From positions 64,001-128,000 of IMG/VR virus record IMGVR_UViG_3300032265_002598: 64,000 nt of DNA; one strand, 5' to 3'. Below are positions 6,001 through 36,848 of this stretch, in pieces. Within the stretch, counting starts at the first letter, position 1, and the number at the start of each line of letters is the position of its first letter. A model generated the notes under the pieces. The model was given only the letters and a program-made list of their open reading frames with translations, was not told the origin of the DNA and did not search any database. The stretch comes from a virus. Lineage: Duplodnaviria; Caudoviricetes. Made by a program: the position numbers and the translations under genes.

Positions 6001-9000
6001 CCAAAGAAGGCTTTCCTTGGGAAGTGTCTTTTGGCACTATAGGAGGATTAGAGAATCCTAATTATCCTCCAACAATCTTATTATCTGGGTTTCCATCTTC
6101 ATGTTCAGGATATAATCCTAAAATTTCGATAGAAGATCAGGCAGCATGTTTTATTGGCAGAGCTTGGAATCCGGCAAAGAAAAAATGGACTTTCAGTTTT
6201 AGCGGACTTCCACTGTGTAATATCTCAGGCGCTAAACCAATTATTATTACTGCTATTGATACTGATACTACACAAAACTTATATTTGAGTTCAGATAAAG
6301 CACAAGCTATTATTTTATACAAATCATTAATAGAACAAGGCATAAGCCACCCTGGACCTACCATTAAAACAATGCAGGGCTCATCAGATAATATCGAATT
6401 ATCTCCACTATGTGGTCAAGCTCCAATTGATAGCTATTGGCAATTTTATACTAATACAAGAGCCCAATGCCCAGAAGCAACTGGAATATCAGGATGGATT
6501 GTTAGTGGCTCGTTACCTTCTGGTCTTCATTACACAGTATCATTCCCTGGAGGTACTCCAGTCTCTCCATATGATAATCTAGGTACTGGAACTTTAAGAA
6601 TATATGGGGAACCTCTAACATTTGCTAGTGGTGGTTCATATCCAGATATTTTCTTATTCAAAGTTGTTGATGCTAGAAATAAATATGCTATTAAAGAGAT
6701 AAAATTTACAGATATTTCTACAGCTAATCCAGCTTCTCCAATTAATTTGACAGTTTATTTTGATGGTACTAAACCAGCTTATACTCCAAGAGGCAATGAT
6801 ATAGGACAAGTTCAACAACCTTCCGGTACCAATCCGATAGACGCTGATGGTCAGCAAAATTACTGGCCGCCAGCTATATCAGACGCTCTAACATGTACCA
6901 GTATTTTACCTCATTCTAATTGCCAGACTTCTTCATTTAGCTATAGTGGAGGAAATTTTGCAGCAGGGGACTCTAATGTATATATTAATAATATTACCAA
7001 TACTAAACTAACTAATACTGTTGGTAGTCTACTATATATTGAATTCGATAATAATCCTTCTAATACTTTTAACAGTGCTTATATACTAAAACAAAGTGGA
7101 ATCCCCAGCATTAAATATATAACAATTCCAGGCCACAATTTTACCGTAGGATCTGGTAGATTTGTTCAGTCTGCTATTAAAGCAATAAATACTTCTAATT
7201 TAAATAATTTCAAAGGAACTGTAGATTCTAGTAGTAGTAAATCAATACTTGGTTGTGGCATAATTAAGCCTAGAAGCATATATGACCCTAACAATTATGG
7301 TTTATTTGGAAGAATGAGACCTTCATATTCTGCATCTTTACCGGTATCTGGATCTTTTCGTAATGATGATATCTTCTTTACTGGACTTAATATTTCTACT
7401 ATATCAGATTATAGTAGTTATCCTTCGGTATATACTATGAAAACTTCTAATTGTTGGGAAACTGGATATCTTAGAATTAGTGGTATTAGCGTTCCAAAAC
7501 CATCAGTAGAATTAACAAACCCTCCCCCAGCAGATACATTTGCTCCATTTTCATACAATAACCAAGCATATGCTGTTTTAAGTCGTTGCACATATGGTTC
7601 TTCTCAATACGAAAAAGATAAATCAGAAAATTATAGATCAACATCGATTAATTATTTTATTAAACATTGTGTTTCTGGAACTGTATTAAATAGTGGGTCT
7701 GTATCTAGTTTAGGTGCTGGCTCTAGTACTGGAGATACTATTCAATTCAATTATATTTTTAATTCTGGCGCTGTTCTTTCTATGTTTATAAATAAAGCAT
7801 CTGATAAATTTCCAACTTATAAATATAATGCTATGCCATATGCAGAAAATGAATATTTTTGGGTTCATAAAGGAGGAAATAGAGATGACAATCCTACTCA
7901 ATTAAGCTTTCCTCCGATTATTATTACTGGTATTAAAAATAGTATTAGCTGCATGAGCGGATCACCAATATCTGGATATAGTATTAGAGCAGTAGGTGGT
8001 TATATTCCATTTAGTGGAGGCAGTCAAAAAATACCTTTCTATCAATTATCAGATGGTACTGCTTGGGACTTGGTTGACTATCCTCCATTATTTACTGGTG
8101 TATTACAGAAAAAACTTAATGAGAAAATATTAACTGGAACATATCAACATTCTGGATTCTTTGGTGGAACTGACGGTCAAAAACTTAATATTTCTTTACC
8201 ATCTAATGCTAGTTCTATTTTCAAATCCACTGATTCTGTTTTAATAAATTTTAGTGGAGATAATATATCATTTACTACTGGAATGATTTTAAACGATAGC
8301 TATAACAGCACAATGACCTTGCCTTATGTATATAATGGAACATCTACAGTTGGAACAGTAACAATATACGATAAATGCTATATTCAATCAATAGATAGTA
8401 CATCAATACTTTTACATCATAATAATATTCCTTATAAAACAGGAGATTATATAGATATATCAGATAGTGGTTCTCTATCTACAGAGAACAATAATCTATT
8501 ACCATATAATTATAAGCTATCTATAATTTCTGGAGATAATAGCTCTATAACAGCATCTTTCAATGGACCTAGCAGTTATTCTTTTGCTGCTGGATTTAAT
8601 GTTAGCGGTTTTTATGATATTAAGAAAAATGAGTATAATCAAATCAAATTAAACAATATTCTATATAATAAAAAGGGAGAATGGAGATTTGGATTAAGTG
8701 GTACTCCAACAGGCCTATATAAAGACTATAAATATAAAATATTTTCTATGGAGAACAGTGGATTACCAGCATTCTCCGGTACTTCTTTAATTCCTAAAAA
8801 ATATATAACAGAATACCCTGTTTATATTAATAAACCACTCAAAATTATTCTTCCTCAATCTATCATTAACTCTGGTATTATTAATAATAATGGATCATGG
8901 AGTTTCAGTTTTGAAATTGATGGAGGTCTTAGGCCTATTTATAGTAATACTCCAGAAATTTTAGTTAACAATAGTATGTGCATTTTTTCTAGATCTTTAG

Positions 9001-9170
9001 ATACAGCTAATATGAGAGATAGCTATAATAGTACTACAGACAGATTAACTATTACTTTATCTAGTACTAATAGTGTAAATTATGATTGGAGATCTATACA
9101 GACTCTTAATATTAGAGCATATGATGATACTGGTTCCGATACAGTAACAGTAAACTTAAATCAACCATAA
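3..9170 (+). CDS. Giant virion structural protein (5'-partial, >3050 aa) with cadherin-like and Ig-like repeats
   Basis: The frame is open from base 3 (VFDSSPTVQFNLGSY...) into the listed ORF at 132, so the true start lies upstream of the window. It contains a cadherin signature (YSLVCGQGSDDNSSFSI...FDYETKSSYKIRIRSTD), a putative-Ig motif (SGSLPSGL...GTLRIYGEP) and an S/T/N/G-rich beta-type composition, and sits in the structural block. Confidence 0.75.
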   Translation, partial: VFDSSPTVQFNLGSYGYESVQNISGSIDTIYCGYPTIGLFVNGLTANFSGQQAIISPASINSGTLSLIPRRNYVATYNRQETNFHKYEAIYTQYVSSNGSSKISLFDKNLEAIELPSTPFVYSLVCGQGSDDNSSFSIQNDRLISSESFDYETKSSYKIRIRSTDMSGRNKEKSFTISIGDITGAAFDNIHLNAPNDYSFNLTDIVLSNSIISENSPVGTTIGKITTLGGYSPYLEFATASNSFSGVLVSGSNIISECNPFYKIYSNTNPLRNASVYGTPYTLITGLTIHTSHTGLLSANISGIAESIAVNGFTQTSGYIISGCSPSIIGSIFSGMKLYSNTSGWNPESRVQSITSNSITLNLPFTGTQISPISISVSTLGRSFILDVPFTNSGVVNTLVTYSGIIPNTKNYYPSGLQYFSTTEQSGYCPVDVTKSYVYGFSTQADQYTVSPGYYLTGLVYFYSNTGTSQISVNLPENLYLEADEPSTFLNFISSNTGSIPLDDNYTNLSDLIETGFSVQNAHLYPNGNPNSTGTVLVSIDRNHGFKIIDSKILNQIPVQFVDAPFNNANRIPKNNLFDILGINGNKITIKDSQNYLLTETNKPKYFEKSIEGRYRIANIFNFSGTIFHNYNRIFNIDKADITSYLKKNSVIGTNSSLSYNSNHIFPISITRIDEPFNFGTKIVPGSNIVKYCGESLWQTKIFSGVNLYSTDPLIGSNGSTIIDHFINPTLRSVSLDKTNFEDPQLSYDFSASSTPNTGTDYTKNYIVSGCNDGFLSLSGYCYFYTVSGVGSYPKTINFGPSIGGFTENSGYVISGCSPSPISSLSVGMKLYSTTSGWNPDSIVQSLTSDSITLDLPFTGTQTSPIPIVVTDINRIAYETLSMNPSQATIKRISPSSSTNTAFNTTSLLPASVATIHNGSILNSIPPYPFSIENTKPYASGMKIPVSINIPVNYQDILEIKATSGSVTHVVPSLNSSNQIIYTTGIYPIYNFFDLKNIQATGIIPDKSLVLETNTPNLYNAETSLVVNIKPKIFLNNKICITNGYNGLRKTNSYFSNGDSIYIDNLSLPRSYLNPDDQLTILSYNGNSSFGSGVSRNIRITNSNPRDTAFSGVPANGNNSIILNKYGSPWYNQYRFTNPLGLTLDQQIQPTGYISFVGSVSGNCSIPFNNNIYYHSHGGFTASWPRDPSGTNVPAPQTGIYTIGVHSQNCSSGTLCVRVAVYNDNQFRNIPDIVNRQDIGKQSNVTNTSNGSGYLRPWGVNKKFYFDFSDDTPELNGSYYIADSLDSNNFTLNMPFNADYLGRSGLVYIIDSDYNIKSNRNPNIDNVFQISQGNINIGTNLVDYYINSYNDQSHRWKHLIHFNKDINNFGGYSGTIHYGQAGTQLISLPPDLLKISQIEYMFNDESAYKTVTDNNVTIPSTKNQIYFKFTVSNGAGKWSDNLLRSAPRINIYGFGSYNIDFSNIIYTNSTRQWMIPVVISDVTQYVNNKKITITVNDESGTDSTDIFLTTKILPKIGNAGTTYVYKNSSINWILPFDIKNLSSDSQTYTLSVDNYPGSYYNIIDEELLYASGTKIVVGSAGANTGIFNPILKIRDYVTSEILASQSGTVVVLDSSQSKPIYSINPQGLDNDIYIDITNANDVASFSFFIPAVLDSQSNPVVSFTNTSSLSISSSIEYSTSSQRYRVTALVSGLAGYYPSINANIAISQPVIQSDDSINWVRYTKNQAFNLTLYKRISINKTELIEPLVYDPAGPWALQFKIQNGIGSHRSDLPPKVRLSNLPTIGNYSSQPLEYLLFTKYDEINHLWLVSVDGKKDIFGKETEVLGFRDIQVYAEDGVSSSTSIIRLFFTKQQYLDNIKSIIYATPNNSYQSNLDIKQAPPPPEDLPQVAVAASPLTENTVQLTRSYAKYDKDLSLWEYAYSGAPLTAKWDASIDITNQNTSLGDSSYSSLLVKCKGIATDKIYGVGKLSLVELDSSYLASIGGTTVPFQIVDIQDPYEAKEGFPWEVSFGTIGGLENPNYPPTILLSGFPSSCSGYNPKISIEDQAACFIGRAWNPAKKKWTFSFSGLPLCNISGAKPIIITAIDTDTTQNLYLSSDKAQAIILYKSLIEQGISHPGPTIKTMQGSSDNIELSPLCGQAPIDSYWQFYTNTRAQCPEATGISGWIVSGSLPSGLHYTVSFPGGTPVSPYDNLGTGTLRIYGEPLTFASGGSYPDIFLFKVVDARNKYAIKEIKFTDISTANPASPINLTVYFDGTKPAYTPRGNDIGQVQQPSGTNPIDADGQQNYWPPAISDALTCTSILPHSNCQTSSFSYSGGNFAAGDSNVYINNITNTKLTNTVGSLLYIEFDNNPSNTFNSAYILKQSGIPSIKYITIPGHNFTVGSGRFVQSAIKAINTSNLNNFKGTVDSSSSKSILGCGIIKPRSIYDPNNYGLFGRMRPSYSASLPVSGSFRNDDIFFTGLNISTISDYSSYPSVYTMKTSNCWETGYLRISGISVPKPSVELTNPPPADTFAPFSYNNQAYAVLSRCTYGSSQYEKDKSENYRSTSINYFIKHCVSGTVLNSGSVSSLGAGSSTGDTIQFNYIFNSGAVLSMFINKASDKFPTYKYNAMPYAENEYFWVHKGGNRDDNPTQLSFPPIIITGIKNSISCMSGSPISGYSIRAVGGYIPFSGGSQKIPFYQLSDGTAWDLVDYPPLFTGVLQKKLNEKILTGTYQHSGFFGGTDGQKLNISLPSNASSIFKSTDSVLINFSGDNISFTTGMILNDSYNSTMTLPYVYNGTSTVGTVTIYDKCYIQSIDSTSILLHHNNIPYKTGDYIDISDSGSLSTENNNLLPYNYKLSIISGDNSSITASFNGPSSYSFAAGFNVSGFYDIKKNEYNQIKLNNILYNKKGEWRFGLSGTPTGLYKDYKYKIFSMENSGLPAFSGTSLIPKKYITEYPVYINKPLKIILPQSIINSGIINNNGSWSFSFEIDGGLRPIYSNTPEILVNNSMCIFSRSLDTANMRDSYNSTTDRLTITLSSTNSVNYDWRSIQTLNIRAYDDTGSDTVTVNLNQP
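357..683 (+). other. Bacterial cadherin-like repeat fragments within the giant virion protein
   Basis: PFVYSLVCGQGSDDNSSFSIQNDRLISSESFDYETKSSYKIRIRSTDMSGRNKEKSFTISIGD is the C-terminal part of a cadherin repeat. It is followed by TDIVLSNSIISENSPVGTTIGKITT, the N-terminal part of another. Confidence 0.7.
933..1133 (+). repeat. 67-aa internal duplication, copy 1
   Basis: NGFTQTSGYIISGCSP...GMKLYSNTSGWNPES...TLNLPFTGTQISPISISV; 49/67 identical aa to the copy at 2412-2612 (manual alignment). Confidence 0.9.
2412..2612 (+). repeat. 67-aa internal duplication, copy 2
   Basis: GGFTENSGYVISGCSP...GMKLYSTTSGWNPDS...TLDLPFTGTQTSPIPIVV; same length (201 nt) as copy 1. Confidence 0.9.
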
Positions 9171-19808: not shown

Positions 19809-22800
19809 ATGGCTAAAGGATTTAATTTAACAGCACAAATTAATTTACAGGGACCATCTAATATTAATGTTATTGTATCTAACATTAAAAAACAATTAGG
19901 CACCATTTCAGCTAATGTTAATTTAAAGATAGACCCAGCATCGGCTAAAACAGTTGCCAGCTTAAATTCTTCTTTAAATCAACTTAACTTAACCCTTAAA
20001 GCGACGGCATCTTCTGCAACAAATGCTGCTGATGCAGTTAGGGATTTACTATCAGCTATGAATGGTGTTGCATCTGTAAAGTTGCCCAGTCAAGCAGCAC
20101 AAGTATCTTCATCTCTTAATAATGTAGCAGCTTCTTCTGCTAGCGCCCAAAAAGCACTATCTGCTTCAAGAACAGAGATAGAAGAATTTGGTAATCAAGC
20201 TGGTTTGGCAGTAAGAAGATTTGCTGCATTCAGCACTGTAACATCAGTAATATATGGATTAACAGGAGCAATTAGAGGTGGAATATCCGATTTTATTGAT
20301 TTTGATAAACAATTAACTAGAATCGCTCAGGTTACTGGTGAAAGTAAAGACGGATTAGGTAGACTAAAAGGAACCATAACAGAATTATCTACAGGTCTTG
20401 GTGTTACAGCTAAAGACTTAGCTGGCGTATCAGTTACACTATCTCAGGCTGGTCTTACCGCTAGAGATACTGAAAAAGCATTAAGAGCATTGGCTCTTAG
20501 CGCCCTAACAGCATCATTTGATGATATGAATCAGACGGTAGAAGGTTCTATTGCTTTGATGAGACAGTTCAAGATCGGATCTAATGAATTAGAAGCGGCT
20601 CTAGGATCTATCAATGCTGTATCAGCAAAGTTTGCAGTAGAATCTAGTGATATTATTGCTGCTATTCAGCGTACTGGTGGTGTGTTTGCCGCAGCTAGTA
20701 GAGGAGTTAGTGAAGGTAAAGATGCTCTCAATGAATTTATTGCTGTCTTTACTAGCGTTAGAGCAACAACCAGAGAAAGTGCTGAAACAATTGCTACTGG
20801 TTTAAGAACTATCTTTACCAGACTCCAAAGAGGAGACACTATTGAGGCCCTTAAAGAATATGGTGTTAATCTTACAGATTTAGATGGCAAATTCGTTGGT
20901 GCTTATAAAGCTGTTCAGTTATTAGCTGAAGGTTTAGGACAGATCGACCCTAGAGACCTTAAATTCTCCAAGATTGTTGAAGAGCTTGGTGGTTTTAGAC
21001 AGATTGGTAAGGTTATTCCATTAATCCAAGAGTTCACAACGGCACAACAAGCACTACAAGTTGCTCAAGCTGGACAAGGCTCATTAGCTTCTGATGCTGC
21101 TAAAGGACAATTAGCATTAGCAGTACAAATTAGTAAAACAAAACAAGAATTTTTATCTTTGATTCGTAGTATTGGAGATACTGATAGTTTTCAAAAAATG
21201 GTTACTGTTGGTCTTAGTTTAGCTAGTGCTTTAATTAAGGTAGCCGACGCTGCTAAAGGCATTATCCCATTAATAGGATTATTTGCCGCATTCAAGGGTG
21301 CTTCAGCTATACGACAGTTTAGTGCTGGATTTGGAACTGGCTTTGGTGGAGGAGCAGCTAAACAAAATAATAGACCATTAGGTTTTGCTACCGGTGGTTT
21401 AGTTCCCGGACAAGGTAATTCTGATAGTGTATCAGCAAGACTAACTCCTGGTGAGTTTGTTGTGAGAAAAAGTGCTGTTAAAGCTATTGGCTCAAATAAT
21501 CTACATAGAATGAATAGATATACAACTGGTGGAATTGTTAATCAAATAGGTGGTGTTCCAGGAAAAACAATAGTTCAAAATAGCAAAAATCAATTAGTAG
21601 GATTTAGTCCAAAAGACACCTATTCTATATCAGATGGTTCTGAAAATCTTATTATTAAATATGATAGTAAAAAACAAAATTATAGAGCTAGAGGTAAAAT
21701 ACTTGATCCTTCTTTAGTTAATCGTCTTTTTAAAAACAATTTTCAATCTACTGTGTCTTGGGAAGAAATTGTTGCCAAAAGCTATAATGGTAGATTAGTA
21801 AATGGAAAAAATGATAAATTCCCAATAGATATTATTGCTGGAAATACTTTAATAGATGCTAAATTTAGGCCAGAAGAATCATATAAGCCTATGGATGCTT
21901 TAGGAAAAGCATTAAGTTATCGTCTATATAAAGCATCGGGAGGTAGATACAACTATGAAAATAATGGACAACAAAAACTTAAACTTAATAGTTTAGTTAG
22001 AAATACTCTTACAGAAAATCAAGATAATATTAAAGATTCTGGTCAGATAAAATTTGTTTATCCAGAATTTCAAGATATTCCCACAGACTTACCCGGAATT
22101 AAGTCTAATGTAACAAAACGACAAGCTCAATTATCTAGCAAAAGAACAAGTTCAATGCAGAGGGGGTATGCTCAAAGTTCAATTGACATATTCGGTGGAT
22201 CTACTTTCAGTGGAAATAAAACAGATATTAATACTTTAAGCCCCTACGATAAAAAAAGTAGATTGTTTGGAGGAGGATCAGTTCGTAAATTTGAAAATGC
22301 GGGCTTAGTTACTCCAACAGCAGGAACAGCAGCTAATGCTAGTGAAATATTAAAAGTACTTACTTTGCCAGGAGCAATGGCAGCTAGTGGAGCAAGTGCT
22401 GGGGATATACTGAAAATACTAAAGAAAAAAAATGTACTTACTCCAAAAGAACAAGATATCAAAAATAAAATTTTAGGAGCATATACTAAAAAAACTTCTG
22501 GTATTAGATTAGCAGAGAATGCAGATATACAGAAGGCAATTACCGAAGGTCTTTTATTTGGTGCTGCTGGATTTAAAGGTAGAGCTTTTCCTATCACACC
22601 AAGAATGGATATTCCAGGATTAAAGAATGCAGTTAAGGTTAGAATTACTAGTGGTGTTTTAGATTCAGAGATGTCTAAAAAACTATTAAAGAAAATGACA
22701 GTGGGACTTAATAGTGTCGCTAATAAAACTTCAAGAAATATCATGATTAAAGATATCTTGAAACAAACTGGTCCATTATATGCTGATTTTGATAGAACAT

Positions 22801-25800
22801 TAGCCTTCGGTGCTGATAAAATTTTAGGAGATCCAACAAAGCCAAAATATAGTGAATTCTCTGATAGAAGCAAAGTTGCTGGGGCTTTAAGAACAGCTAA
22901 TCTTAGCATTTTAGGTAAAGCTATTGCTAGTACAGTAAGAAAAACCCCAGAATTTGCTAATAACCTAAATGTAATTTCTGCTAGACCACAATCAACAATG
23001 GATTTAATAGCCGGATGGTTAGCTAGCAAGGGCATTCCAATTCCATTAAATAGAATAAAGGGTGTTGGTGGGCCACAAGTTACTCCAGAACAGATTGCTA
23101 GTTTAAAGGCTGACTTGATGAATCCAGAGGGGGCCTTTGTTGACGATGATCCTAGAAATATTGCAGAATCAGAAAGAAGAGGAATCCGATCATATCTATA
23201 TAAAAAACAAAATGTTGGACCAACAGGAAGAAAAAAGCTTGGAGAAGCAAATGCTAAGGGTTATTTAGCCGAAAGAGTAATTCATGAGCTGGGCGGTCCA
23301 ATAGCTAATAAAGCTGCGACTAACTATGGTATCGACTTCCCAGATGGTTTAAAAAGTGCCGCGAAATACTTTGGTATTCCATCAGATATTCCAACAGACG
23401 CTAAACTTACTTTAAATGGTCCTGCTGAACTGAAGAGCCAGATTGGCAATTATCTCAAGGTGAGAGGATATGCTGGTGGTGGTTCTGTTACAGCAGACTA
23501 TTATAGCTTAGAAAAAAGTAGTGGATTAAAAAGTTTTGAATTTGATAATGCTGTAAAGTTTGCTAAAACTATGAATTATAGCATGTCAGAATTTCAAACA
23601 TATCTAAAGAAACTGCAAGTAGAAAAACAGAATAAATCTGGTGTTAAGACAGATAAAGATGCTCTAAGAAAATCTTTAATATCTGGAACCCCAACTGCTA
23701 CATCTAGACAAATGTCATTAGCAGAATCACTAAAAGGTCCAGCAGATGCTGGCTATAGACCAATATTAACAGAAGCTCAAAGAGTTGCTGCTGCTCGTGC
23801 AGATGTGAGAAATGCAACAAGAGGATTTGCTTCTGGTGGACTTGTTCCCGGAGTTGGTAATCAGGATACTGTTCCTGCTAATCTCAATGTGGGTGACTTT
23901 GTTATTCGTAAAAAAGCAGTATCTACTATTGGTGCTAGTAATCTAAGTTCATTAAATAAAAGAGCTAGTGGCGGAGAAATAAGCAACACCGTCCCTGCAC
24001 TATTAACTCCTGGTGAGTTTGTTATAAATAGAAAAACTGCTAGTAGCATAGGAACAGCAACACTTAATAGATTAAACTATGCAGATAAGGCTTCTAAATT
24101 TAATAATGGTGGCCCAGTAGGAACTGTTCAAGAGTTTGCAATAGGTGGAGCTGTACAAAGACTATTCTTTGGTGGTCCAAGCTTACCAGCTAAACCCTCT
24201 AATCCTACAGAGGGTAATGTTCAAATTTCTACTACTGTTGGTGACCAGCTTAGAGGTATGGTAACCGCTTTAAATGACTTAGGAATATCTTCATCTAAAA
24301 CAGCAGAGATTATTAAAAAGGGTGGACAGATCAGTTATCAAGCTGCTATAAAAGCTTATTCTGCTGATATCCAAAAAATGAGATTAAATGGTGCATCTGC
24401 GATACAAGTTGCAGACGCAGAGAGAAAGCTTAGAGATATTAGAGCAGACGCAGCAAAGAATATCGAAACTAGAAAAAAACTCTCTGGAGTTGGTGCAGAT
24501 CAATTACAGAACATAGATACCTCAGCACAGTTTGAGAAAGAAAGATTAACAAATCAAAAGAGAAATAGTTTAAGAAAAAAAGGAATTACTGGAGAAGCAG
24601 CGGATAAAGTATTAGAAGGTAGTGCTGCTAATATTGAAAAAATAGCATATCAAAGTGCAGCAAAATCACAAGGTGTTGATCTTAAAGGTATGGGTCTAAA
24701 TGGTCAGGATATGCAAAAATATATCCAACGATCAATGATGGATGCAAAAACTTTACAGCAAATGAATGCTCAATATTTACAAACTAGAAAGAAAGATTTA
24801 GAAGCAGTAGGACATAGTGCAGCAGAAGCTCATAAAATAGCTCAAAAAGAAATCAAAGAAAGAGAAGCCATACTTAGAGATGTTGCCAAGTCTCGTGGAA
24901 TGGCAGATCCTACAGGGAAGGGATCGTCTGAAAAACTCAGCCAAAGAATGATGATGGCCGGTTTTATGCTTCCTATGATAGGTAGTGCAGCATCTAGTCT
25001 TATTAATCCTGAAAGTAGTGCAGCGAGTGCTGCAACATCTGCTGGTATTCAAGGAGTAACTAATACAGTTGGTATGGGATTAGGCACAATGAGTATGATA
25101 CCTCTTGAAAAACTAGGTAAATTTGGTGGAATACTAGGTATGGCAGCAGTTGCAGCAGCAGCTGTTGGTCAAGCTATGATAGATGCTCGTAATGCTACTA
25201 TAGAGTTTGAGAAAAAGATGGGTCAGAATAAAGCAGAAAAAGCTTTAGAAGAAGTAGGTAAAACTTTTGAAAAACTTGAAAAAGATATAAAGAATATAAA
25301 TCTTCAGAAAATTATTATAACTAAACTAGCAGAAGCTAGTACAAATATCAAAAGTAGTGTAGAAGCTGATGTTAAAAGAGCTAAAGCATATTGGACTAAT
25401 TTATTAGATGCTTATTTCGGTGGAGCAGGAACATCGCAAGGAAATAGGGAAGCAGCAGAAAGAAGTAAAATTTTAGAAAAAGGAGGAGTAGGTAAATATT
25501 TTCAAGCTACAGGTTTTGGTCAAGCTATGATGGGTAATGTTTCTGGTGCTGATGCAGCAGCTAGTGCGTCAAGATCTGCACAAATAAGAGGTTATGCTCC
25601 AGAAACAGCACAGCAAAATGCCAAAATATTTGCTGATACTGCTAGCCAAATTAATCGTCTTATAGAACAAAAATTTAAAGGCGGAGAAAGCTTAGAAAGT
25701 ATTTTAACAAGCATTACAGATGCTTCACAACCAGAATTTCAACAGTTTGCAGAAGTCTTAGCTAAATCTAATGCTGTTATAGGACAACAAATTTTGTATA

Positions 25801-31800: not shown

Positions 31801-34800
31801 GATCAGATAATGCTCAAGTCAATTCTCAACAAGTAGCAGAAGATATCTATAAAGGTAATAAAACGCCTTTGACGAAAAAATTAGTAGATTGGTTAGATAA
31901 AAAAGAAGGAGCTAAAACTTTAGTTGAAAAAGCTAAAGAATTATTTCCTGGTAGATCCCCTGATGATGCTCCAAATGACAAATTTTTAGCATCAGATTTT
32001 GCTCAAATAGGCGATTTATTTAGAAATGCTCCTAAGTTTATTGAGGCACTATATAAAGGTGAAACTCCATTAGCTAAGGGAAAGAAACATATTTTTTCTC
32101 TATTATCTCAAGGAGCCAGAGTTAAAGGCATTGAGGCTTTAATTAAAGCAAGAACATTATTTTCCGGTTCTGACCAATCAGTACTTGGTGAAAGAACAGT
32201 TTATGCTGATCCTTCAAGAACTCCAGAGAATACTATTGGAAGAGACAAATTAGTATATAGAAACAATCCAATGGGATCGGTATTTGGAGCTGATAGAGAT
32301 CAATCTGGTTTAACTGCCGCAGAAAAAGCTAAAATAGAAGAAAGACTTAGAGAACATGATTGGGCAGGATCATTAGATAATACGGGTTCCTCTCCATCTC
32401 ACGCCATGAGAGATCCTAGGTTTACAACTACTGTTGGTAATGATCTTAATTGGGATAAAGATGGTGATGGAAGAGTATCTAAAGAAGAGTGGTTAGAAAA
32501 ATTTAGTGGCATGGATAATGGTGGAAAAAGATTATTTAGTAAATATGATCTTAATAATAATGGATTTTTAGAGCTTAAAGAATTTACTAAATTTTATAAT
32601 GAGTCCAAGGGTACTCTTGGTCCAGAAAACGATGCGGCAGCTGTAGATTTGGGAAGGTCTATTAATGAAAGACACGCAAATAGAGTAAAACCAGTTGATG
32701 CTTTGAAGGCAATGTTTGAAGATAAAAAAATAAGAGAAGCATTAACAACGAATGCTAAATATTCTATTACAGAGACTTTTATACCTAAAAATCTAAAGAA
32801 TATATCTCAAAATGAAATTGATGAACCAAAAATTCTTAAAGAATTACAGGATAAATATAGCGAATTATATCCTAAGAGAACCACAATACCTGATATATTA
32901 AACAATGAATTACCTTTACCAAAATATATAGATGATAAATTTGCAGATTTATTTGCTGATAGGGCTGAATTTGCTCCCTTAGGTGTTTTAAATAATTATC
33001 ATATAGAAGACCTTCATAAAGTTATTAGAGAACCATTTCATTTTACCAATAAAAATACTTCACGTAATTTACTATTAGAAAAGAATTTTGATTTCAATAA
33101 AGAGCCGTGGAAAGAACTGGTTAAACCATACGAAAAATCTCCCTATCAATTACCGTTTGGCTTTCAATCAGCGACCCAGTTACTCAAATCTAATGCTGAC
33201 CATTGGTTTGACACAACAATATTTCCAGAAAATAATTGGAACAATCCTAGAAGTTGGAGAGATGATAAATATAGTATTGGAGTCATCCCATACGACCCCA
33301 AATCTGTACAACAAGGTCAATGGTCAATACCTCCCGGTCAACAAGTCGGTAACTCTGTTCCACCAGGGCAACAAGCAGGAACACCAGCTAGTCAAGCTGG
33401 AACAGTACCTCCCGGTCAACCACCAACCGGGACATCGGGATCAACAGTTCCTCCTAATAAACCAGTAGAAAACAAGTTAGTTGGCTCTACTATTAGAGAC
33501 AAATACTATGATGAATTAACATATAAAGAATATTTAGCTTCTTTAATCAAAGCTGAAAAAGCTCCAGAAGCTCCAGATAAAAAGTTATTCACAACACCAG
33601 CTTTCTATACTATCGGCCCAGATGGTCAAAAAGTTCGTGATACAGCTTATGACACTAGAGAAACACAAAGAAGAATTGGCGGAGGAAAGCCAATTGATAA
33701 AGATGATATTAATCATGCCATGGTGTCAACATTAGCTAATGATATTTATAATGATTACAATAATGTTCAATCTCATTTAGGAACATTTAAGAATCCAAGA
33801 AGTGATGCTAATGTTAAAGACCAATCTTTATCTGGAATAGAATTAGGCTATGGTAATTTAGTAAATAACTTAACAAAACTTAGCACACTAACTAATCTTT
33901 CCAAGATGAAAAATAAACCCATCATGGTCGGAGAAGCTAAAAATATTCCATTTAGTATTGATGATGTTGTTGATAGACTAAGAGTAATGAGAGAGATATA
34001 TAATAATGAAATCCTATCTAAGAAGAAAGAAAAACTTGGTAAAATTAATGATTCTATTCTCGACGATTTCTTCTCGTCTACTGCAAAAATCACTGAAACC
34101 AACAATGTTCCAACTCCTGCTGATGGCAAGCCATTTAGTGGAAAAGAAGTAAGAACAAATAGAGGTATTCCAGGGCCTATAAGAATGCCTGTTAGAGGTA
34201 TGACTGGAGTAGAAACTCAATATAAAAATTCTTATAATCACTATAGACGTATTTTAGGAGAATATAATTATCATCAGATGGTGGGTAGAGGCAAAAGATA
34301 TGCTCAAGGACATAAAACAACTACTAGAGTAGCTAAAACACTATCTTCTGGTGGAATGGTATATGCTAGTAATGGAATGTTAATTCCTTATGCTCCAAAA
34401 GGAACTGATACTGTACCAGCCATGTTAACTCCAGGAGAATTTGTTGTTAACCGAGCAGCTACTCAAGCTAATTTGCCATTATTACAGAGTATTAATAAAA
34501 ATAAGGGTGGAGAAATCAGTTATTATGCTACTGGTGGAATGGCTGCTCCTGATACTGCTAGTATTTCATACGACATTAGACAACAAGAAGCTAATACTCT
34601 TAATAATCAAAAAACCTCTATGAATAGCAGTAAAACATTGAATGCTATAATAGATACACAAAAAACAACCCAAAATATACAAAGTTCCACACAACAATTT
34701 ATTCCAAGTGTTAATAGTAGCTTTTCTTCTTTGTTTGTAGAATCAAAAAATATTTCAAAAGGAGTTCAAGGAGTAAGAAGAGATATTACAAATGTTGATT

Positions 34801-36848
34801 CTTCAATTTTAAAATCCAAAGATGAAACAAATCAGAATATAACTAGTCTTGCAAAATACAATTCTTCTAGTGCTAACTCTGTTGGAAATAGCATTGGAGC
34901 AATTGGTCAGCAGGTTGTAATGAAGTCAAATGATAATATTAAACACGTTTCTAAAGGTGGTACAGTATATGCTGCTGAAGGTCAATTAATTAATTTCCAG
35001 CCTCATGGCACAGACACTATTCCTGCGATGCTAACTCCTGGAGAATTTGTTGTTAACGCTAGAGCAACACAACAGAATCTTCAATTATTACAGGCTATTA
35101 ATAAAAATAAAGGAGGAATGGTTTATGCTCAAGATGGTATATTAGTACCTAATTCTAGAGAGCTTCAACAATATGGGGATATAAAACAGGACACATTTGA
35201 CCCATCAAAAGCAACAACTCCTAGTTCTGATAAGCGAAAAGCTAAAAGAAGTGAGTATTTACAGAAACAAATAGAGAGAGAAGAAGCAAAAGAATTTAAT
35301 AAATTAGGAATTAACTATAATAATAGTACTACCATAGAAGATATACTAAAAGCTTTGAAAAAACAAAGAAATTACCAAGAAAAAAACGATTACTATCTAC
35401 GTCAATTTATTTCGGATGAATCATTAGGATTAAGACTAAAAAGATTTCCAAAAATTAGCAAAGCAATTGAAACTATAAAAGAACAATCGACTATAAATCC
35501 ATTCGATCCTCCAACAACAGATCCTCTTAATCCTGCCAAACCATCTACAGTTGATGAGCCAAAAGTATATTATAAAGGTGTCGAAACAAAAGCAAATGGA
35601 GGAATGATCTACGCTGCTGAAGGAAAATTAATCAATTTCCAGCCTCGTGGTACTGATACTGTTCCCGCTATGTTAACTCCTGGAGAGTTTGTTGTTAATC
35701 GTCAAGCCACCCAACAAAATCTCTCTTTACTAAAAACTATTAATAGTGGTAATTATAAGGAATCTTCTAAAGGATACTCTCATGGGGGAGTAATATATCT
35801 GGAAAAGGGTGCTCAAGTTCCCCCAGAGTTGCGGGGACTTGAAAATAGTGCTGTTGGTCAAATAATATTAAAAGTCAAAGCTCAAGCTGAAAGTTATCCT
35901 AATCTTTTTGAGGCTCTTGATGATAAAGCTATAAATCAAAATCTTAAAAAAGATGAATTAGTGACAAAGTACGAAGATGCTTGGAAAACTATGGATCCTA
36001 GTGCTAGATATTCATCGGCCCAACAACAATTTAAAACAGATAAAGCTAGAGTAGATTATTTAGAAGAAATATATACTAACAGTATGAATGCTTATGATAG
36101 TATTTTGAAAAGTACTCTATCTCCAAGAGCTAACTATATTAAAGTAAAAGATAAAAGTATAATAGAAATACTGCTTGGACAAAAAGTAGCTAAATTAGAA
36201 CACGATGTAATACATGAAACTTGGGTTGAATTATTCAAAAAGCATCCAGAATTTCGTAGTGGTCCTATTAATGCTGGAGCAACCCAGGCCGCTGGAACAG
36301 GTACTGTAGCAGGACAAACAACGGTAGCAGCAGCAGGAAAACAATATGGTGGTATGATTTATGCTAATCATGGTATGATGATTCCTTATATTCCAAGAGG
36401 TAGTGATACTGTTCCTGCTATGTTAACACCGGGCGAATTTGTTGTTAATAGAGCATCAACCCAGCAAAATCTACCTTTATTACAAGCTATTAACAATAAT
36501 CGATATAGTCGTGGCGGCAGTGTTAAGTATTTAGCTCATGGTGCAATGGCTGATGAGTCTGGTGCTGGTGGTGGTGTATCTAATGGTGGAGGCTCATCCT
36601 CACCCAATATGGATGGATTAAGCCAGTTTACGACAAAATTTGAAGAATTTATTGGCCAATTAAAAGCAATAAACTTACCACCAATTATTAATGTTATGGG
36701 TAATCATAAGGTTGAGGTAGTATTTAATGGAGCAGAAGTATTGAAACAACTCAGTGAAACAGCCATCAGTGATATGGTTGTTGCAGAAGTTGGTAGAGCT
36801 ATGGGTACTCTTAGTGATCAAACAGAAGGCGCTTTAGGGAGAAAATAA
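19809..36848 (+). CDS. Giant tail tape measure protein (5679 aa) with multiple inserted cargo domains
   Basis: TP901-type core (FDKQLTRIAQVTGES...LSQAGL...AVSAKFAVESSDIIAAIQRTGG), Ala/Gly-rich helical and hydrophobic segments, position after tube and chaperone genes, and nine TPGEFVV-type modules. Confidence 0.9.
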   Translation: MAKGFNLTAQINLQGPSNINVIVSNIKKQLGTISANVNLKIDPASAKTVASLNSSLNQLNLTLKATASSATNAADAVRDLLSAMNGVASVKLPSQAAQVSSSLNNVAASSASAQKALSASRTEIEEFGNQAGLAVRRFAAFSTVTSVIYGLTGAIRGGISDFIDFDKQLTRIAQVTGESKDGLGRLKGTITELSTGLGVTAKDLAGVSVTLSQAGLTARDTEKALRALALSALTASFDDMNQTVEGSIALMRQFKIGSNELEAALGSINAVSAKFAVESSDIIAAIQRTGGVFAAASRGVSEGKDALNEFIAVFTSVRATTRESAETIATGLRTIFTRLQRGDTIEALKEYGVNLTDLDGKFVGAYKAVQLLAEGLGQIDPRDLKFSKIVEELGGFRQIGKVIPLIQEFTTAQQALQVAQAGQGSLASDAAKGQLALAVQISKTKQEFLSLIRSIGDTDSFQKMVTVGLSLASALIKVADAAKGIIPLIGLFAAFKGASAIRQFSAGFGTGFGGGAAKQNNRPLGFATGGLVPGQGNSDSVSARLTPGEFVVRKSAVKAIGSNNLHRMNRYTTGGIVNQIGGVPGKTIVQNSKNQLVGFSPKDTYSISDGSENLIIKYDSKKQNYRARGKILDPSLVNRLFKNNFQSTVSWEEIVAKSYNGRLVNGKNDKFPIDIIAGNTLIDAKFRPEESYKPMDALGKALSYRLYKASGGRYNYENNGQQKLKLNSLVRNTLTENQDNIKDSGQIKFVYPEFQDIPTDLPGIKSNVTKRQAQLSSKRTSSMQRGYAQSSIDIFGGSTFSGNKTDINTLSPYDKKSRLFGGGSVRKFENAGLVTPTAGTAANASEILKVLTLPGAMAASGASAGDILKILKKKNVLTPKEQDIKNKILGAYTKKTSGIRLAENADIQKAITEGLLFGAAGFKGRAFPITPRMDIPGLKNAVKVRITSGVLDSEMSKKLLKKMTVGLNSVANKTSRNIMIKDILKQTGPLYADFDRTLAFGADKILGDPTKPKYSEFSDRSKVAGALRTANLSILGKAIASTVRKTPEFANNLNVISARPQSTMDLIAGWLASKGIPIPLNRIKGVGGPQVTPEQIASLKADLMNPEGAFVDDDPRNIAESERRGIRSYLYKKQNVGPTGRKKLGEANAKGYLAERVIHELGGPIANKAATNYGIDFPDGLKSAAKYFGIPSDIPTDAKLTLNGPAELKSQIGNYLKVRGYAGGGSVTADYYSLEKSSGLKSFEFDNAVKFAKTMNYSMSEFQTYLKKLQVEKQNKSGVKTDKDALRKSLISGTPTATSRQMSLAESLKGPADAGYRPILTEAQRVAAARADVRNATRGFASGGLVPGVGNQDTVPANLNVGDFVIRKKAVSTIGASNLSSLNKRASGGEISNTVPALLTPGEFVINRKTASSIGTATLNRLNYADKASKFNNGGPVGTVQEFAIGGAVQRLFFGGPSLPAKPSNPTEGNVQISTTVGDQLRGMVTALNDLGISSSKTAEIIKKGGQISYQAAIKAYSADIQKMRLNGASAIQVADAERKLRDIRADAAKNIETRKKLSGVGADQLQNIDTSAQFEKERLTNQKRNSLRKKGITGEAADKVLEGSAANIEKIAYQSAAKSQGVDLKGMGLNGQDMQKYIQRSMMDAKTLQQMNAQYLQTRKKDLEAVGHSAAEAHKIAQKEIKEREAILRDVAKSRGMADPTGKGSSEKLSQRMMMAGFMLPMIGSAASSLINPESSAASAATSAGIQGVTNTVGMGLGTMSMIPLEKLGKFGGILGMAAVAAAAVGQAMIDARNATIEFEKKMGQNKAEKALEEVGKTFEKLEKDIKNINLQKIIITKLAEASTNIKSSVEADVKRAKAYWTNLLDAYFGGAGTSQGNREAAERSKILEKGGVGKYFQATGFGQAMMGNVSGADAAASASRSAQIRGYAPETAQQNAKIFADTASQINRLIEQKFKGGESLESILTSITDASQPEFQQFAEVLAKSNAVIGQQILYIESDIHLKADQKKAQIEAIQATYAEAEARRIYGVVARQKEIKSLEQSTGLFSRSLERMYQNMEQSINRTIFTLDKMSKELDLVVSSFKGEATVGQGSLDSINMLQNPRAYSKNDRESARDQASSFFSGNRDLVKGLLNAGDNLEQVIMTTLSNTFRDNPAANNEQIGIAIERNVKDQLANLSLPSDVGDKLAAEVQKALGDLRKEDNSKVDFAQLAEKIPQLSKVIESAKRAQEVAIKALENWQNALNNYSTRTNQLVDLQVDTNNRLRKSTQILADSQIDLAKSLGQEIGVSDTRRVAESKTGQLTGGLISPKDITDNILNLEGNRRAQETGSNIARNRGASGVDDFMNMQKGLKDTNTALRENYEALKNLADNSDVASAALGKIQEAQQKNQGRVSFIEKLVTSTPDEMDGLGKALGRLQTNMNGQVNTIQRSQGAQQAYYEALQNGASGFEAMRAAQTAFANERKETLGALNDIMPFLGNNKQSNNIKANVLEGMLKESGQGVSPIMQQVLTTLRNPQADPETQAAMAQYQQATNLQSEANRQLAMLNTNLAGQIADASAKALKDALTGTALTFQNAELTNIRDDVAIIKNLIGAGTTTPTTKASGGVIYAAAGMGIDFSPKGTDTVPAMLTPGEFVVNRAATQRNLPLLRSINSQKHSSGGPVRYYAGGGYVSSIMKDQTDLRGEGLKVTDKNYLDPDSEDFKNLVSDKSPTVFSGWKNYTRSQASGEGRKEGDNIYAPARWWYGIAGMGPGEIAFNNRGALLAGAAPKIEVTPDGYFQYTATQPTTVDPINQVQPMGLLMSKGVIGTRPIRQDQIIKYKEKILAIKRNMGAQAWGDDPSDFDIGSLEDINGVQGKSGGPGKEYDPNISIGKNIGIIISPNKNRPIITPVFPSEETTDIQKVWLEMTTAASLVPTGYYGTIVSPHAVETGGTLRTDNSETVPGANNSNAGQDIRDKGLKIDLLSTPRTSVVPNAAMATVEANWVRAKADIDAKINSQRINTTFYKDTLASVEADNFKFVRTKVNNRLDQLQKQLQNLYENRSLVEDIGPSKEFLDLEPLNAPDPIVDLHVLSATKNNELRQKIKELQAISPTIREDKGWRGLNVGTIGAAFGEKWMDGNAIDIQDEMAAGPLKEFPWIANLDPTILLANLAADIRRKQEDLASGKEYGFNVSQITHSVNEKLPAPLDQYSLKHTEQYLKYTGPLWNPDDPNADPSGFLTDNPLKDYFVVKPSPAKEDMFQYAGEAFKNQRNFASKNKPFDLSDLISKLQPAQTQTIADYIKNPTDPQLTTDLKNIAVGVNPSLITAKTVGVSKPIGLEGFDLFSQEDNTPINLNIGSYLTHAIEELAQEQKRKALGVTGEIDNAKGLSIGIADTDKQKASVNLTRGALNVFGRSKIPGFANGWLARYIGRMPSILGMAKNNNIVKSGTSYIANVFNEAGAYASKLFQMARNPQQYNALKEAYVMISGATSAFNGLSNGDTRFLKLLQDQGDYSALFRSLGASSSFQKAANNELTADYQAQLGQELKGSKIRKVGADGSLSYADFNNSVPKTYQDLVDTALNPYNEFTSPSIRKGLINTLIADISNGKDSLGMPFFDKRTLDYINNNLRTLQSWYGGDGNAWPGQDSFYDETLDAKIRTDSVINALNNNAAGGLLDQANLANTQLGVATKFGNLPSAQWFEARKIAQPQFRATGGMIYASEGQMINFQPRGTDTVPAMLTPGEFVVNRQATQKNLPLLQSINNGNHYSKGGPVNYLSDGGEAAPFNAITGNRVKEKPEDKDSPLTKYKISSVLYPYVSYPFDERGYSQDLPPELKMLNTLGGYGGGIGYTNIFFDTDLAKSLRSIRSNKNNQYATSTAVNNSSAEFIKQFKFRDIDNNDKLTGFDFSSFLSDSDNILGLIDPDLGDGFAPKNLIAWKKAEDRVKARSSAKAVIANLTPDLENIKAVIQDQHPVDGSNNTNDRNSYGAQGQAAIAMRMLIYNVIETWKKDSIESIEGLGSDNAQVNSQQVAEDIYKGNKTPLTKKLVDWLDKKEGAKTLVEKAKELFPGRSPDDAPNDKFLASDFAQIGDLFRNAPKFIEALYKGETPLAKGKKHIFSLLSQGARVKGIEALIKARTLFSGSDQSVLGERTVYADPSRTPENTIGRDKLVYRNNPMGSVFGADRDQSGLTAAEKAKIEERLREHDWAGSLDNTGSSPSHAMRDPRFTTTVGNDLNWDKDGDGRVSKEEWLEKFSGMDNGGKRLFSKYDLNNNGFLELKEFTKFYNESKGTLGPENDAAAVDLGRSINERHANRVKPVDALKAMFEDKKIREALTTNAKYSITETFIPKNLKNISQNEIDEPKILKELQDKYSELYPKRTTIPDILNNELPLPKYIDDKFADLFADRAEFAPLGVLNNYHIEDLHKVIREPFHFTNKNTSRNLLLEKNFDFNKEPWKELVKPYEKSPYQLPFGFQSATQLLKSNADHWFDTTIFPENNWNNPRSWRDDKYSIGVIPYDPKSVQQGQWSIPPGQQVGNSVPPGQQAGTPASQAGTVPPGQPPTGTSGSTVPPNKPVENKLVGSTIRDKYYDELTYKEYLASLIKAEKAPEAPDKKLFTTPAFYTIGPDGQKVRDTAYDTRETQRRIGGGKPIDKDDINHAMVSTLANDIYNDYNNVQSHLGTFKNPRSDANVKDQSLSGIELGYGNLVNNLTKLSTLTNLSKMKNKPIMVGEAKNIPFSIDDVVDRLRVMREIYNNEILSKKKEKLGKINDSILDDFFSSTAKITETNNVPTPADGKPFSGKEVRTNRGIPGPIRMPVRGMTGVETQYKNSYNHYRRILGEYNYHQMVGRGKRYAQGHKTTTRVAKTLSSGGMVYASNGMLIPYAPKGTDTVPAMLTPGEFVVNRAATQANLPLLQSINKNKGGEISYYATGGMAAPDTASISYDIRQQEANTLNNQKTSMNSSKTLNAIIDTQKTTQNIQSSTQQFIPSVNSSFSSLFVESKNISKGVQGVRRDITNVDSSILKSKDETNQNITSLAKYNSSSANSVGNSIGAIGQQVVMKSNDNIKHVSKGGTVYAAEGQLINFQPHGTDTIPAMLTPGEFVVNARATQQNLQLLQAINKNKGGMVYAQDGILVPNSRELQQYGDIKQDTFDPSKATTPSSDKRKAKRSEYLQKQIEREEAKEFNKLGINYNNSTTIEDILKALKKQRNYQEKNDYYLRQFISDESLGLRLKRFPKISKAIETIKEQSTINPFDPPTTDPLNPAKPSTVDEPKVYYKGVETKANGGMIYAAEGKLINFQPRGTDTVPAMLTPGEFVVNRQATQQNLSLLKTINSGNYKESSKGYSHGGVIYLEKGAQVPPELRGLENSAVGQIILKVKAQAESYPNLFEALDDKAINQNLKKDELVTKYEDAWKTMDPSARYSSAQQQFKTDKARVDYLEEIYTNSMNAYDSILKSTLSPRANYIKVKDKSIIEILLGQKVAKLEHDVIHETWVELFKKHPEFRSGPINAGATQAAGTGTVAGQTTVAAAGKQYGGMIYANHGMMIPYIPRGSDTVPAMLTPGEFVVNRASTQQNLPLLQAINNNRYSRGGSVKYLAHGAMADESGAGGGVSNGGGSSSPNMDGLSQFTTKFEEFIGQLKAINLPPIINVMGNHKVEVVFNGAEVLKQLSETAISDMVVAEVGRAMGTLSDQTEGALGRK
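21759..21863 (+). other. PD-(D/E)xK-like nuclease motif 1 inside the TMP
   Basis: WEEIVAKSYNGRLVNGKNDKFPIDIIAGNTLIDAK gives the E...D...D-x-K arrangement. Confidence 0.45.
22770..23201 (+). other. HAD-superfamily phosphatase domain inside the TMP
   Basis: All four HAD motifs in order: I YADFDRTL, II VISAR, III LKA, IV FVDDD. Confidence 0.75.
23259..23405 (+). other. PD-(D/E)xK-like nuclease motif 2 inside the TMP
   Basis: GYLAERVIHE...YGIDFPDG...IPTDAK gives the E...D...D-x-K arrangement. Confidence 0.4.
32454..32600 (+). other. Paired EF-hand Ca2+-binding loops inside the TMP
   Basis: DKDGDGRVSKEE(W) and DLNNNGFLELKE(F) both fit the 12-residue EF-loop (D1, D/N3, D/N5, G6, hydrophobic 8, E12); the loops start 31 aa apart. 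Confidence 0.8.

Follow-up and report, generated by a model that had tools for sequence, protein, structure and literature searches.

The HAD domain of a giant tape measure protein

The window, meaning the whole stretch of 64,000 nucleotides analyzed here, covers bases 64001-128000 of the IMG/VR record IMGVR_UViG_3300032265_002598, a complete virus sequence of 201,067 bp bearing direct terminal repeats, and contains a single open frame of 5,679 amino acids (P0002; 19809..36848, plus strand) in which a HAD-fold phosphatase domain is predicted. The open reading frame (ORF) is, as identified from its sequence, a phage tail tape measure protein of the TP901 type. The tape measure core, PF10145 PhageMin_Tail, is located at the N terminus at residues 189-382 (20373..20954, plus strand) with a Pfam E-value of 2.6e-23 and a score of 83.4 bits compared with a curated cut-off of 33.2, and the ORF also matches several PHROG families named "tail length tape measure", down to E 1e-27. 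The surrounding genes provide a tail-gene context, with tail-fibre-like genes upstream of the tape measure and large structural ORFs downstream. The segment 22770-23201 (plus strand) corresponds to residues 988-1131 of the ORF and has a stop-free translation, and the hidden Markov model (HMM) envelope of the putative phosphatase domain is slightly wider, covering residues 984-1136 (22758..23216, plus strand).

A preliminary description of this DNA had proposed that a complete HAD phosphatase domain is embedded in the tape measure, with motifs I-IV reading DFDRT, ISAR, K, and FVDDD. The four motifs are present as described, both in the translation and in an alignment of 111 homologous domains, and together with the PF10145 core and the predicted Rossmannoid fold discussed below they support the proposal. 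Motif I (D993-F-D995-R-T997; 22785..22799, plus strand as for all four motifs) contains the predicted nucleophile and general acid/base aspartates. Motif II (N-V-I-S1057-A-R1059-P; 22968..22988) includes S1057, encoded at 22977-22979, and motif III is the conserved lysine K1100 (23106..23108). Motif IV (F-V-D1112-D1113-D-P-R-N1117; 23136..23159) carries the putative Mg2+ ligands D1112 and D1113, with codons at 23142-23147.

Conservation was counted across 111 full-length homologous domains aligned by HMM, each taken from a different 50%-identity cluster and nearly all from giant proteins of 1,900-7,900 amino acids. In motif I, D993 and D995 are each present in 110 domains and T997 in 109. Position 1057 of motif II is Ser or Thr throughout (Thr in 91, Ser in 20), the adjacent A1058 and R1059 are found in all 111, and the following proline is found in 105. 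K1100 is retained in 106 domains, and in motif IV D1113 is invariant, D1112 occurs in 110 with a single replacement by Glu, and N1117 occurs in 104. The positions around the seven catalytic residues vary across the 111 clusters, and homologous domains keep the motifs down to ~27% identity. Judged from this alignment, the catalytic motif set is far beyond chance. The ratio of nonsynonymous to synonymous substitution rates (dN/dS) of the domain is 0.12-0.18 relative to the two closest viral contigs (L001 and L002), indicating purifying selection; only these two were used, with L005 being left out as invalid due to an indel and L003 and L004 as near saturation. An antisense ORF of 263 amino acids (22244-23035, minus strand) overlaps the HAD region; as the plus frame is strongly conserved and has a low dN/dS, this ORF is probably spurious.

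Predicted fold and nearest HAD families

The AlphaFold2 model of the domain, built on a 30-sequence alignment, has a predicted local distance difference test (pLDDT) score of ~88 over model residues 10-152 and of 86-95 across most of the core. The secondary structural elements are arranged in the order strand, insert helices, strand, helix, strand, helix, strand, helix, strand, forming a five-stranded Rossmannoid fold in which motif I ends strand 11-14, motif II ends strand 74-78, and motif IV ends strand 130-133, with K1100 placed in helix 114-123. The 50 matches listed by Foldseek against the PDB are nearly all HAD-fold structures with probabilities of 0.98-1.00. On re-alignment with VIA the top match is the T4 Pnkp 3'-phosphatase (5uj0_B) with a Z score of 12.6 and a root mean square deviation of 3.3 over 127 of 142 residues, followed by the Pnkp1 phosphatase (Z 11.5), AphA (Z 11.1, with the longest alignment at 143 residues), and many HAD enzymes at Z 8.5-9.6. 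Z is at least 8 in 161 of the 999 compared chains, and HAD enzymes make up almost all of the matches listed. The first match in BFVD is a phage "PNKP phosphatase domain" protein (E 8e-7, TM 0.69), and the named shape neighbors in the ESM Atlas are PF25109 HAD_PNKP clusters (TM 0.67-0.74). Atlas neighbors by features are viral T5-dNMPase, HAD_PNKP, HAD_SAK_1, and Acid_phosphat_B clusters (0.92-0.94). The envelope-related HAD families GmhB and KdsC are not among the best structural matches in Foldseek (PDB) or VIA. The HMM and structure searches agree with the expectation of the preliminary description in that a Rossmannoid HAD fold is predicted and the top matches are HAD enzymes, and it is almost certain that the domain has a real HAD fold.

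The C-terminal 3'-phosphatase of T4 Pnkp (PseT; 5uj0, 1ltq; PF25109) is the best structural match, and PNKP-type proteins also lead the BFVD and Atlas searches. The DxDxT nucleophile and acid/base pair, the Ser, the Lys, the DD Mg ligands, and the [ST]-[GA]-R of motif II are shared by the two domains, both of which belong to phage proteins and have a minimal cap. In T4 Pnkp, the nucleophile is Asp165 and the acid/base is Asp167, while the phosphate is contacted by Ser211 and Lys258 and Mg is bound by Asp278 (PMC3592404); D993 and D995 correspond to Asp165 and Asp167. The invariant Arg two residues past the motif II Ser/Thr is found also in T4 PseT (S-G-R), T5 Dmp (T-A-R), and AphA (T-G-R). A substantial difference occurs between motifs I and II, where the gap is 64 residues compared with 46 in T4 Pnkp. 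The 18 additional residues are themselves strongly conserved, and the domain is thus better termed "minimal-cap" than strictly cap-less. The cap-less, T4 PNK-like spacing put forward in the preliminary description is correct as to the closest structural neighbor but needs some qualification as to the spacing itself. Further differences are that no significant profile relation to T4 Pnkp is found, no kinase is fused to the HAD domain in the place of the Pnkp 5'-kinase, and no RNA ligase was found in the genome. The tape measure domain is part of a structural protein of the virion, whereas T4 Pnkp is an early cytoplasmic enzyme.

The class B acid phosphatase AphA (1z5g, 2b82; HAD subfamily IIIB, PF03767) is the best sequence-profile match, with an E-value of 0.013 that is below significance. 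The profile alignment is colinear across all four motifs and the insert, and K1100 aligns with the AphA catalytic Lys, the position being K in the wild-type chain and N or R in the K154N and K154R mutant chains. The insert aligns better with AphA than with T4 Pnkp (143 compared with 127 aligned residues), whereas motif IV is G-D-S-D-N-D in AphA and V-D-D-D-x-x-N in the tape measure domain. AphA acts on mononucleotides in the periplasm as a free homotetramer. Among named clusters, the deoxynucleoside-5'-monophosphatase Dmp of phage T5 (PF26880) is closest by protein-language-model features (0.94), and its motifs II (T-A-R) and IV (h-h-D-D) resemble those of the tape measure domain. The Dmp gene lies on the first-step-transfer DNA, so that Dmp works at the very start of infection, but it is expressed after DNA entry and, unlike the tape measure domain, is not carried in the virion.

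A single-sequence phmmer search of the PDB gives a match at E 1.9 to one HAD protein at motif IV, the stretch from which the sub-threshold matches to solved HAD structures arise, and a Pfam scan gives no match to PF25109, although the Pfam copy used may not include that model. Distant free-standing homologues of the domain match Pfam DUF2608, two of them just above the cut-off, with weaker matches to the 5'-nucleotidase, Hydrolase, and Acid_PPase families and, in one case, to PF03767 at E 0.081. Taking sequence and model together, the domain is a member of the HAD superfamily in an uncurated family, nearest to the Pnkp and class B group. Membership of the T4 Pnkp or T5 Dmp families was considered, with hhalign probabilities of 13% and 5%, respectively, being too weak for such a claim, and membership of any single one of the Pnkp and class B families is not shown.

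Homologues and the cargo block

A word-indexed search identified 36 giant proteins of 3,490-7,733 amino acids that share the segment at 40-95% identity, nearly all with PF10145. Some of the full-length homologues carry the JGI name TP901-family tape measure and other named ones are "hypothetical protein"; the segment is present in five IMG/VR contigs. Among 1.84 billion cluster representatives, a profile search returned 381 matches at E <= 1e-3, with 72 at E <= 1e-30. The best 150 listed matches are nearly all proteins of 1,900-7,900 amino acids, and homologues reach 7,872 amino acids. The position of the HAD module is fixed after the tape measure core in nearly all homologues, and the HAD domain and the module downstream of it align in all 16 of 16 diverse full-length relatives, among which tape measure residues 600-800, 2700-3600, and 3800-4800 are variable. 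Some relatives are without the HAD module yet keep the neighboring 88-amino acid module. A distant HAD copy with all catalytic residues occurs at residues 2361-2530 of P0157, a crAss-like virion protein of 3,237 amino acids (L008/L009 8001-17714) that has an N-terminal SLT lytic transglycosylase domain and adjoins a crAss_MUZ_C muzzle gene.

Directly C-terminal to the HAD domain is the 88-amino acid module at residues 1139-1226 (23223..23486, plus strand), with the residues E1155, D1176, and D1197-x-K1199 and the pattern G-x3-E, i-D-F-P-x-G-L, P-T-(D/E)-x-K-R-T. Among 136 homologous copies D1176 and G1180 are invariant, E/Q1155 is present in 135, and K1199 in 130, and the module adjoins a HAD domain in ~100 proteins and occurs without one in ~25. 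The pattern resembles the PD-(D/E)xK core. The AlphaFold2 model of the module has a pLDDT of 71 and almost no strands, the best structure match among 48,161 chains is at Z 3.5, and several PD-(D/E)xK proteins are matched at Z 2.2-3.0 mixed with unrelated folds. A profile of the module has no match among PDB sequences. The module is therefore nuclease-like by motif resemblance only, and of the second nuclease-like motif that the preliminary description placed directly after the phosphatase, the conserved module stands, while a nuclease fold is at most putative. The first such motif (W-E-E ... P-I-D-I-I ... I-D-A-K-F) lies at residues ~640-700 (window 21700-21920) in a region common to only ~5 of the 16 homologues, and it is not a copy of the 88-amino acid module, as no relation between the two is found by HMM.

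Nine modules of ~50 amino acids, each with the pattern G-G-x-hydrophobic ... (T/S)-D-(T/S)-V-P-A-x-L-T-P-G-E-F-V-V ... N-L-P-L-L, were located by regular expression at residues 547, 1361, 1401, 2633, 3721, 4875, 5077, 5291, and 5541. PHROG 35029, a family of unknown function, is matched by these Gly-Gly modules. No other part of the C-terminal two thirds of the tape measure is as well conserved, and the modules delimit variable blocks. The first two of the nine enclose the entire cargo block, whose upstream boundary is formed by the first module (residues ~525-575; 21381..21533, plus strand) and whose downstream boundary is formed by the second and third (residues ~1335-1425; 23811..24083, plus strand).

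Other enzyme-like regions are found in the equivalent slot of sister tape measures. P0056, a sister protein of 7,794 amino acids, has a PF03496 ADP-ribosyltransferase (ART) exoenzyme match of 29.3 bits, compared with a cut-off of 23.4, at residues ~940-1060 upstream of its HAD domain, with S-T-S and E-x-E-like motifs visible; P0059 is listed together with P0056 for this feature. PF16581 HIGH_NTase1_ass is matched just below the cut-off in P0127, P0105, P0113, P0116, P0118, P0123, and P0031, with P0127 also matching PF01467 at a similar level, which marks these regions as HIGH-nucleotidyltransferase-like. These PF16581-like regions are situated upstream of the E/D/(D/E)xK module, which the tape measures concerned keep, and only P0031 among them has the HAD domain too, the others being without it.

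Proposed role at infection and alternatives

The reading favored here, with a probability of roughly 0.55 from sequence, model, and analogy, is that the domain is an active phosphatase carried as cargo and acting in the host after ejection. Residues 984-1136 would form a Mg2+-dependent HAD phosphomonoesterase in which D993 forms the aspartyl-phosphate intermediate and D995 serves as the general acid/base, with S1057 and K1100 holding the phosphate and D1112 and D1113 binding Mg2+. The motifs and the model make it very likely that the domain is an active enzyme; given activity, its action in the host after ejection is probable by analogy with other tape measures, and given both, a nucleotide or nucleic acid is a somewhat favored substrate. 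An active, host-acting phosphatase with a substrate of this class is, as a combined proposal, tentative and has rather less than an even chance. In this reading, a large family of giant tape measures carries the HAD domain as a fixed cargo module, fused to the E/D/(D/E)xK module. As over a hundred related tape measures of giant size retain the domain, these phages probably bring a ready-made phosphatase into the host together with their DNA.

The tape measure of 80alpha is present in three copies with the N termini at the neck and the C termini at the baseplate and is thought to be ejected with the DNA (10.1101/2024.12.10.627806), and pb2 of T5 is driven out of the lumen of the tail, with its muralytic domain possibly refolding afterwards (10.1101/2022.09.20.507954). 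As a tape measure must exit the lumen before the DNA, about three copies per virion, taking the 80alpha number, would be released into the host. At residues ~990-1130 of 5,679 the HAD domain is placed in the head-proximal fifth and by analogy would exit last, just ahead of the DNA. The phosphatase would act in the host before any phage gene expression. ADP-ribosyltransferases need cytoplasmic NAD+, and the ART cargo of the sister protein thus suggests that the cargo block reaches the cytoplasm. With a nucleotide or a nucleic-acid terminal phosphate as the favored substrate class, the options are 3'/2' end healing as in Pnkp or dephosphorylation of nucleotides as in T5 Dmp and AphA. For so few enzyme molecules, a substrate of low abundance such as nucleic-acid ends is a better fit than bulk metabolism, and bulk dNMP hydrolysis by ~3 molecules per cell is implausible. 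A counter-defence or end-healing role, as raised in the preliminary description, may at most be inferred.

Several results weigh against this reading. An expected number of only ~3 enzyme copies in each cell speaks against a function in bulk nucleotide metabolism, and the complete 201-kb genome contains neither an AAA_33 kinase (PF13671) nor a PF09414 RNA ligase, which argues against the classic Pnkp repair pathway; PF09511 also has no match in the genome, a result that is uninformative as a control search was likewise without a match. Pfam, NCBIfam, and PHROGs contain no significant family for the segment searched alone. The best PDB match of the 56-domain profile, AphA, scores only 18.8 bits at the E-value given above, and hhalign with the 56-sequence profile relates the tape measure domain to T4 PseT through motif IV only and to T5 Dmp at a probability of just 4.8%. 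A tblastn search with residues 940-1260 found no match in 50,697 deposited phage genomes, and a pattern scan of 185,579 prokaryote genomes found no relative, leaving neither a prophage copy nor a host assignment.

The phosphatase might instead be released in the periplasm or cell wall and dephosphorylate envelope components or periplasmic nucleotides, aiding penetration. The only well-documented tape measure enzyme cargo that can be cited, T5 pb2, acts on the envelope, the best sequence-profile match (AphA; E 0.013, Z 11.1) is a periplasmic enzyme, and the distant HAD copy in the crAss-like giant protein accompanies a lytic transglycosylase domain at the start of that protein. However, envelope-active domains are located at the tip-proximal C terminus, whereas the HAD domain is near the head-proximal N terminus; sister tape measures hold at the same place an ART, whose requirement for NAD+ points to the cytoplasm, and GmhB and KdsC do not appear among the best matches. 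Action on the envelope is considered improbable on this balance. Minimal-cap HAD enzymes often act on macromolecular substrates, and an injected protein phosphatase directed at host Ser/Thr/Tyr/Asp-phosphate proteins, for example in kinase-based defence or signaling, would be consistent with this tendency, with the structural matches to MDP-1 (Z 8.8) and the HAD domain of the translocated Legionella effector Lem4 (Foldseek E 7e-4), and with the few enzyme copies per cell, which suit a signaling target. Both MDP-1 and Lem4 nevertheless rank below the Pnkp-type and AphA-type proteins in all three structure libraries, and the fused neighbors are nucleic acid-like by motif or nucleotide-related, making a protein substrate similarly unlikely.

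A purely structural or assembly role, with the HAD fold serving as a spacer, stopper, or chaperone-docking element and the chemistry irrelevant or lost, would be in keeping with the fixed position of the module after the tape measure core in nearly all homologues. The near-absolute conservation of the seven catalytic residues in 111 clusters amid variable surroundings is difficult to explain in this way, and the relatives that are without the HAD domain and still keep its neighbor argue against an indispensable architectural role, so that the structural explanation is very unlikely. An extension of the favored reading, host-acting phosphatase cargo, would view the tape measure as a multi-enzyme vehicle with a head-proximal nucleic-acid end-processing kit, comprising the HAD 3'/2'-phosphatase and the E/D/(D/E)xK module, with ART and nucleotidyltransferase modules swapped among relatives. 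Such a kit might enter the cytoplasm ahead of the DNA and, before any phage gene expression, condition the incoming genome ends or repair or disarm the products of host defences that cleave RNA or DNA; in this full form the proposal is speculative and doubtful.

Tape measures are usually regarded as proteins that set tail length and form a channel, and both tape measures with enzyme domains and HAD phosphatases are already well known. A full-text literature search found no description of a HAD or phosphatase domain in a tape measure. The enzyme cargo that could be documented for them is cell wall-degrading, whereas here uncultured phages with very long tails keep a phosphatase site in over a hundred lineages, and the occurrence of phosphatase, ART-like, and nucleotidyltransferase-like modules in the same slot suggests that tape measures can also carry host-directed enzymes. 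As the HAD family is missed by current Pfam, NCBIfam, and PHROG models, proteins of this kind are annotated only as "tape measure". T5 pb2 is similar in having a built-in enzymatic domain and in being expelled at infection, possibly with refolding, but its cargo is a C-terminal, tip-proximal muralytic zinc peptidase, compared with a putative phosphatase and nuclease-like module in the head-proximal N-terminal fifth here. A carried phosphatase suggests a protein-level "first strike" comparable to that of the T4 Alt ADP-ribosyltransferase, a pre-made enzyme that enters with the DNA, although Alt is a separate particle-carried protein and not part of a tape measure. Sle1 of contractile injection systems is a tape measure-like carrier with exchangeable functional domains (PMC13277306); it is part of a bacterial injection system and has its functional domain at the C terminus, in contrast to the phage tape measure with its HAD domain.

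Further features of the tape measure region

At ~1.5 Å per helical residue, the 5,679 residues of the tape measure would correspond to a tail of ~850 nm. Four more very large ORFs on the same strand surround it at 3-9170, 36848-41218, 42863-48349, and 48356-56194, with lengths of 4,112 (in the full genome), 1,456, 1,828, and 2,612 amino acids, respectively, and are presumably tail or tip structural proteins. The tape measure also contains two EF-hand calcium-binding motifs at residues 4216-4263 (window 32454-32597), with PF13202 and PF00036 both matched above their cut-offs, and PF13202 is found also in 3 of the 36 listed tape measure homologues.

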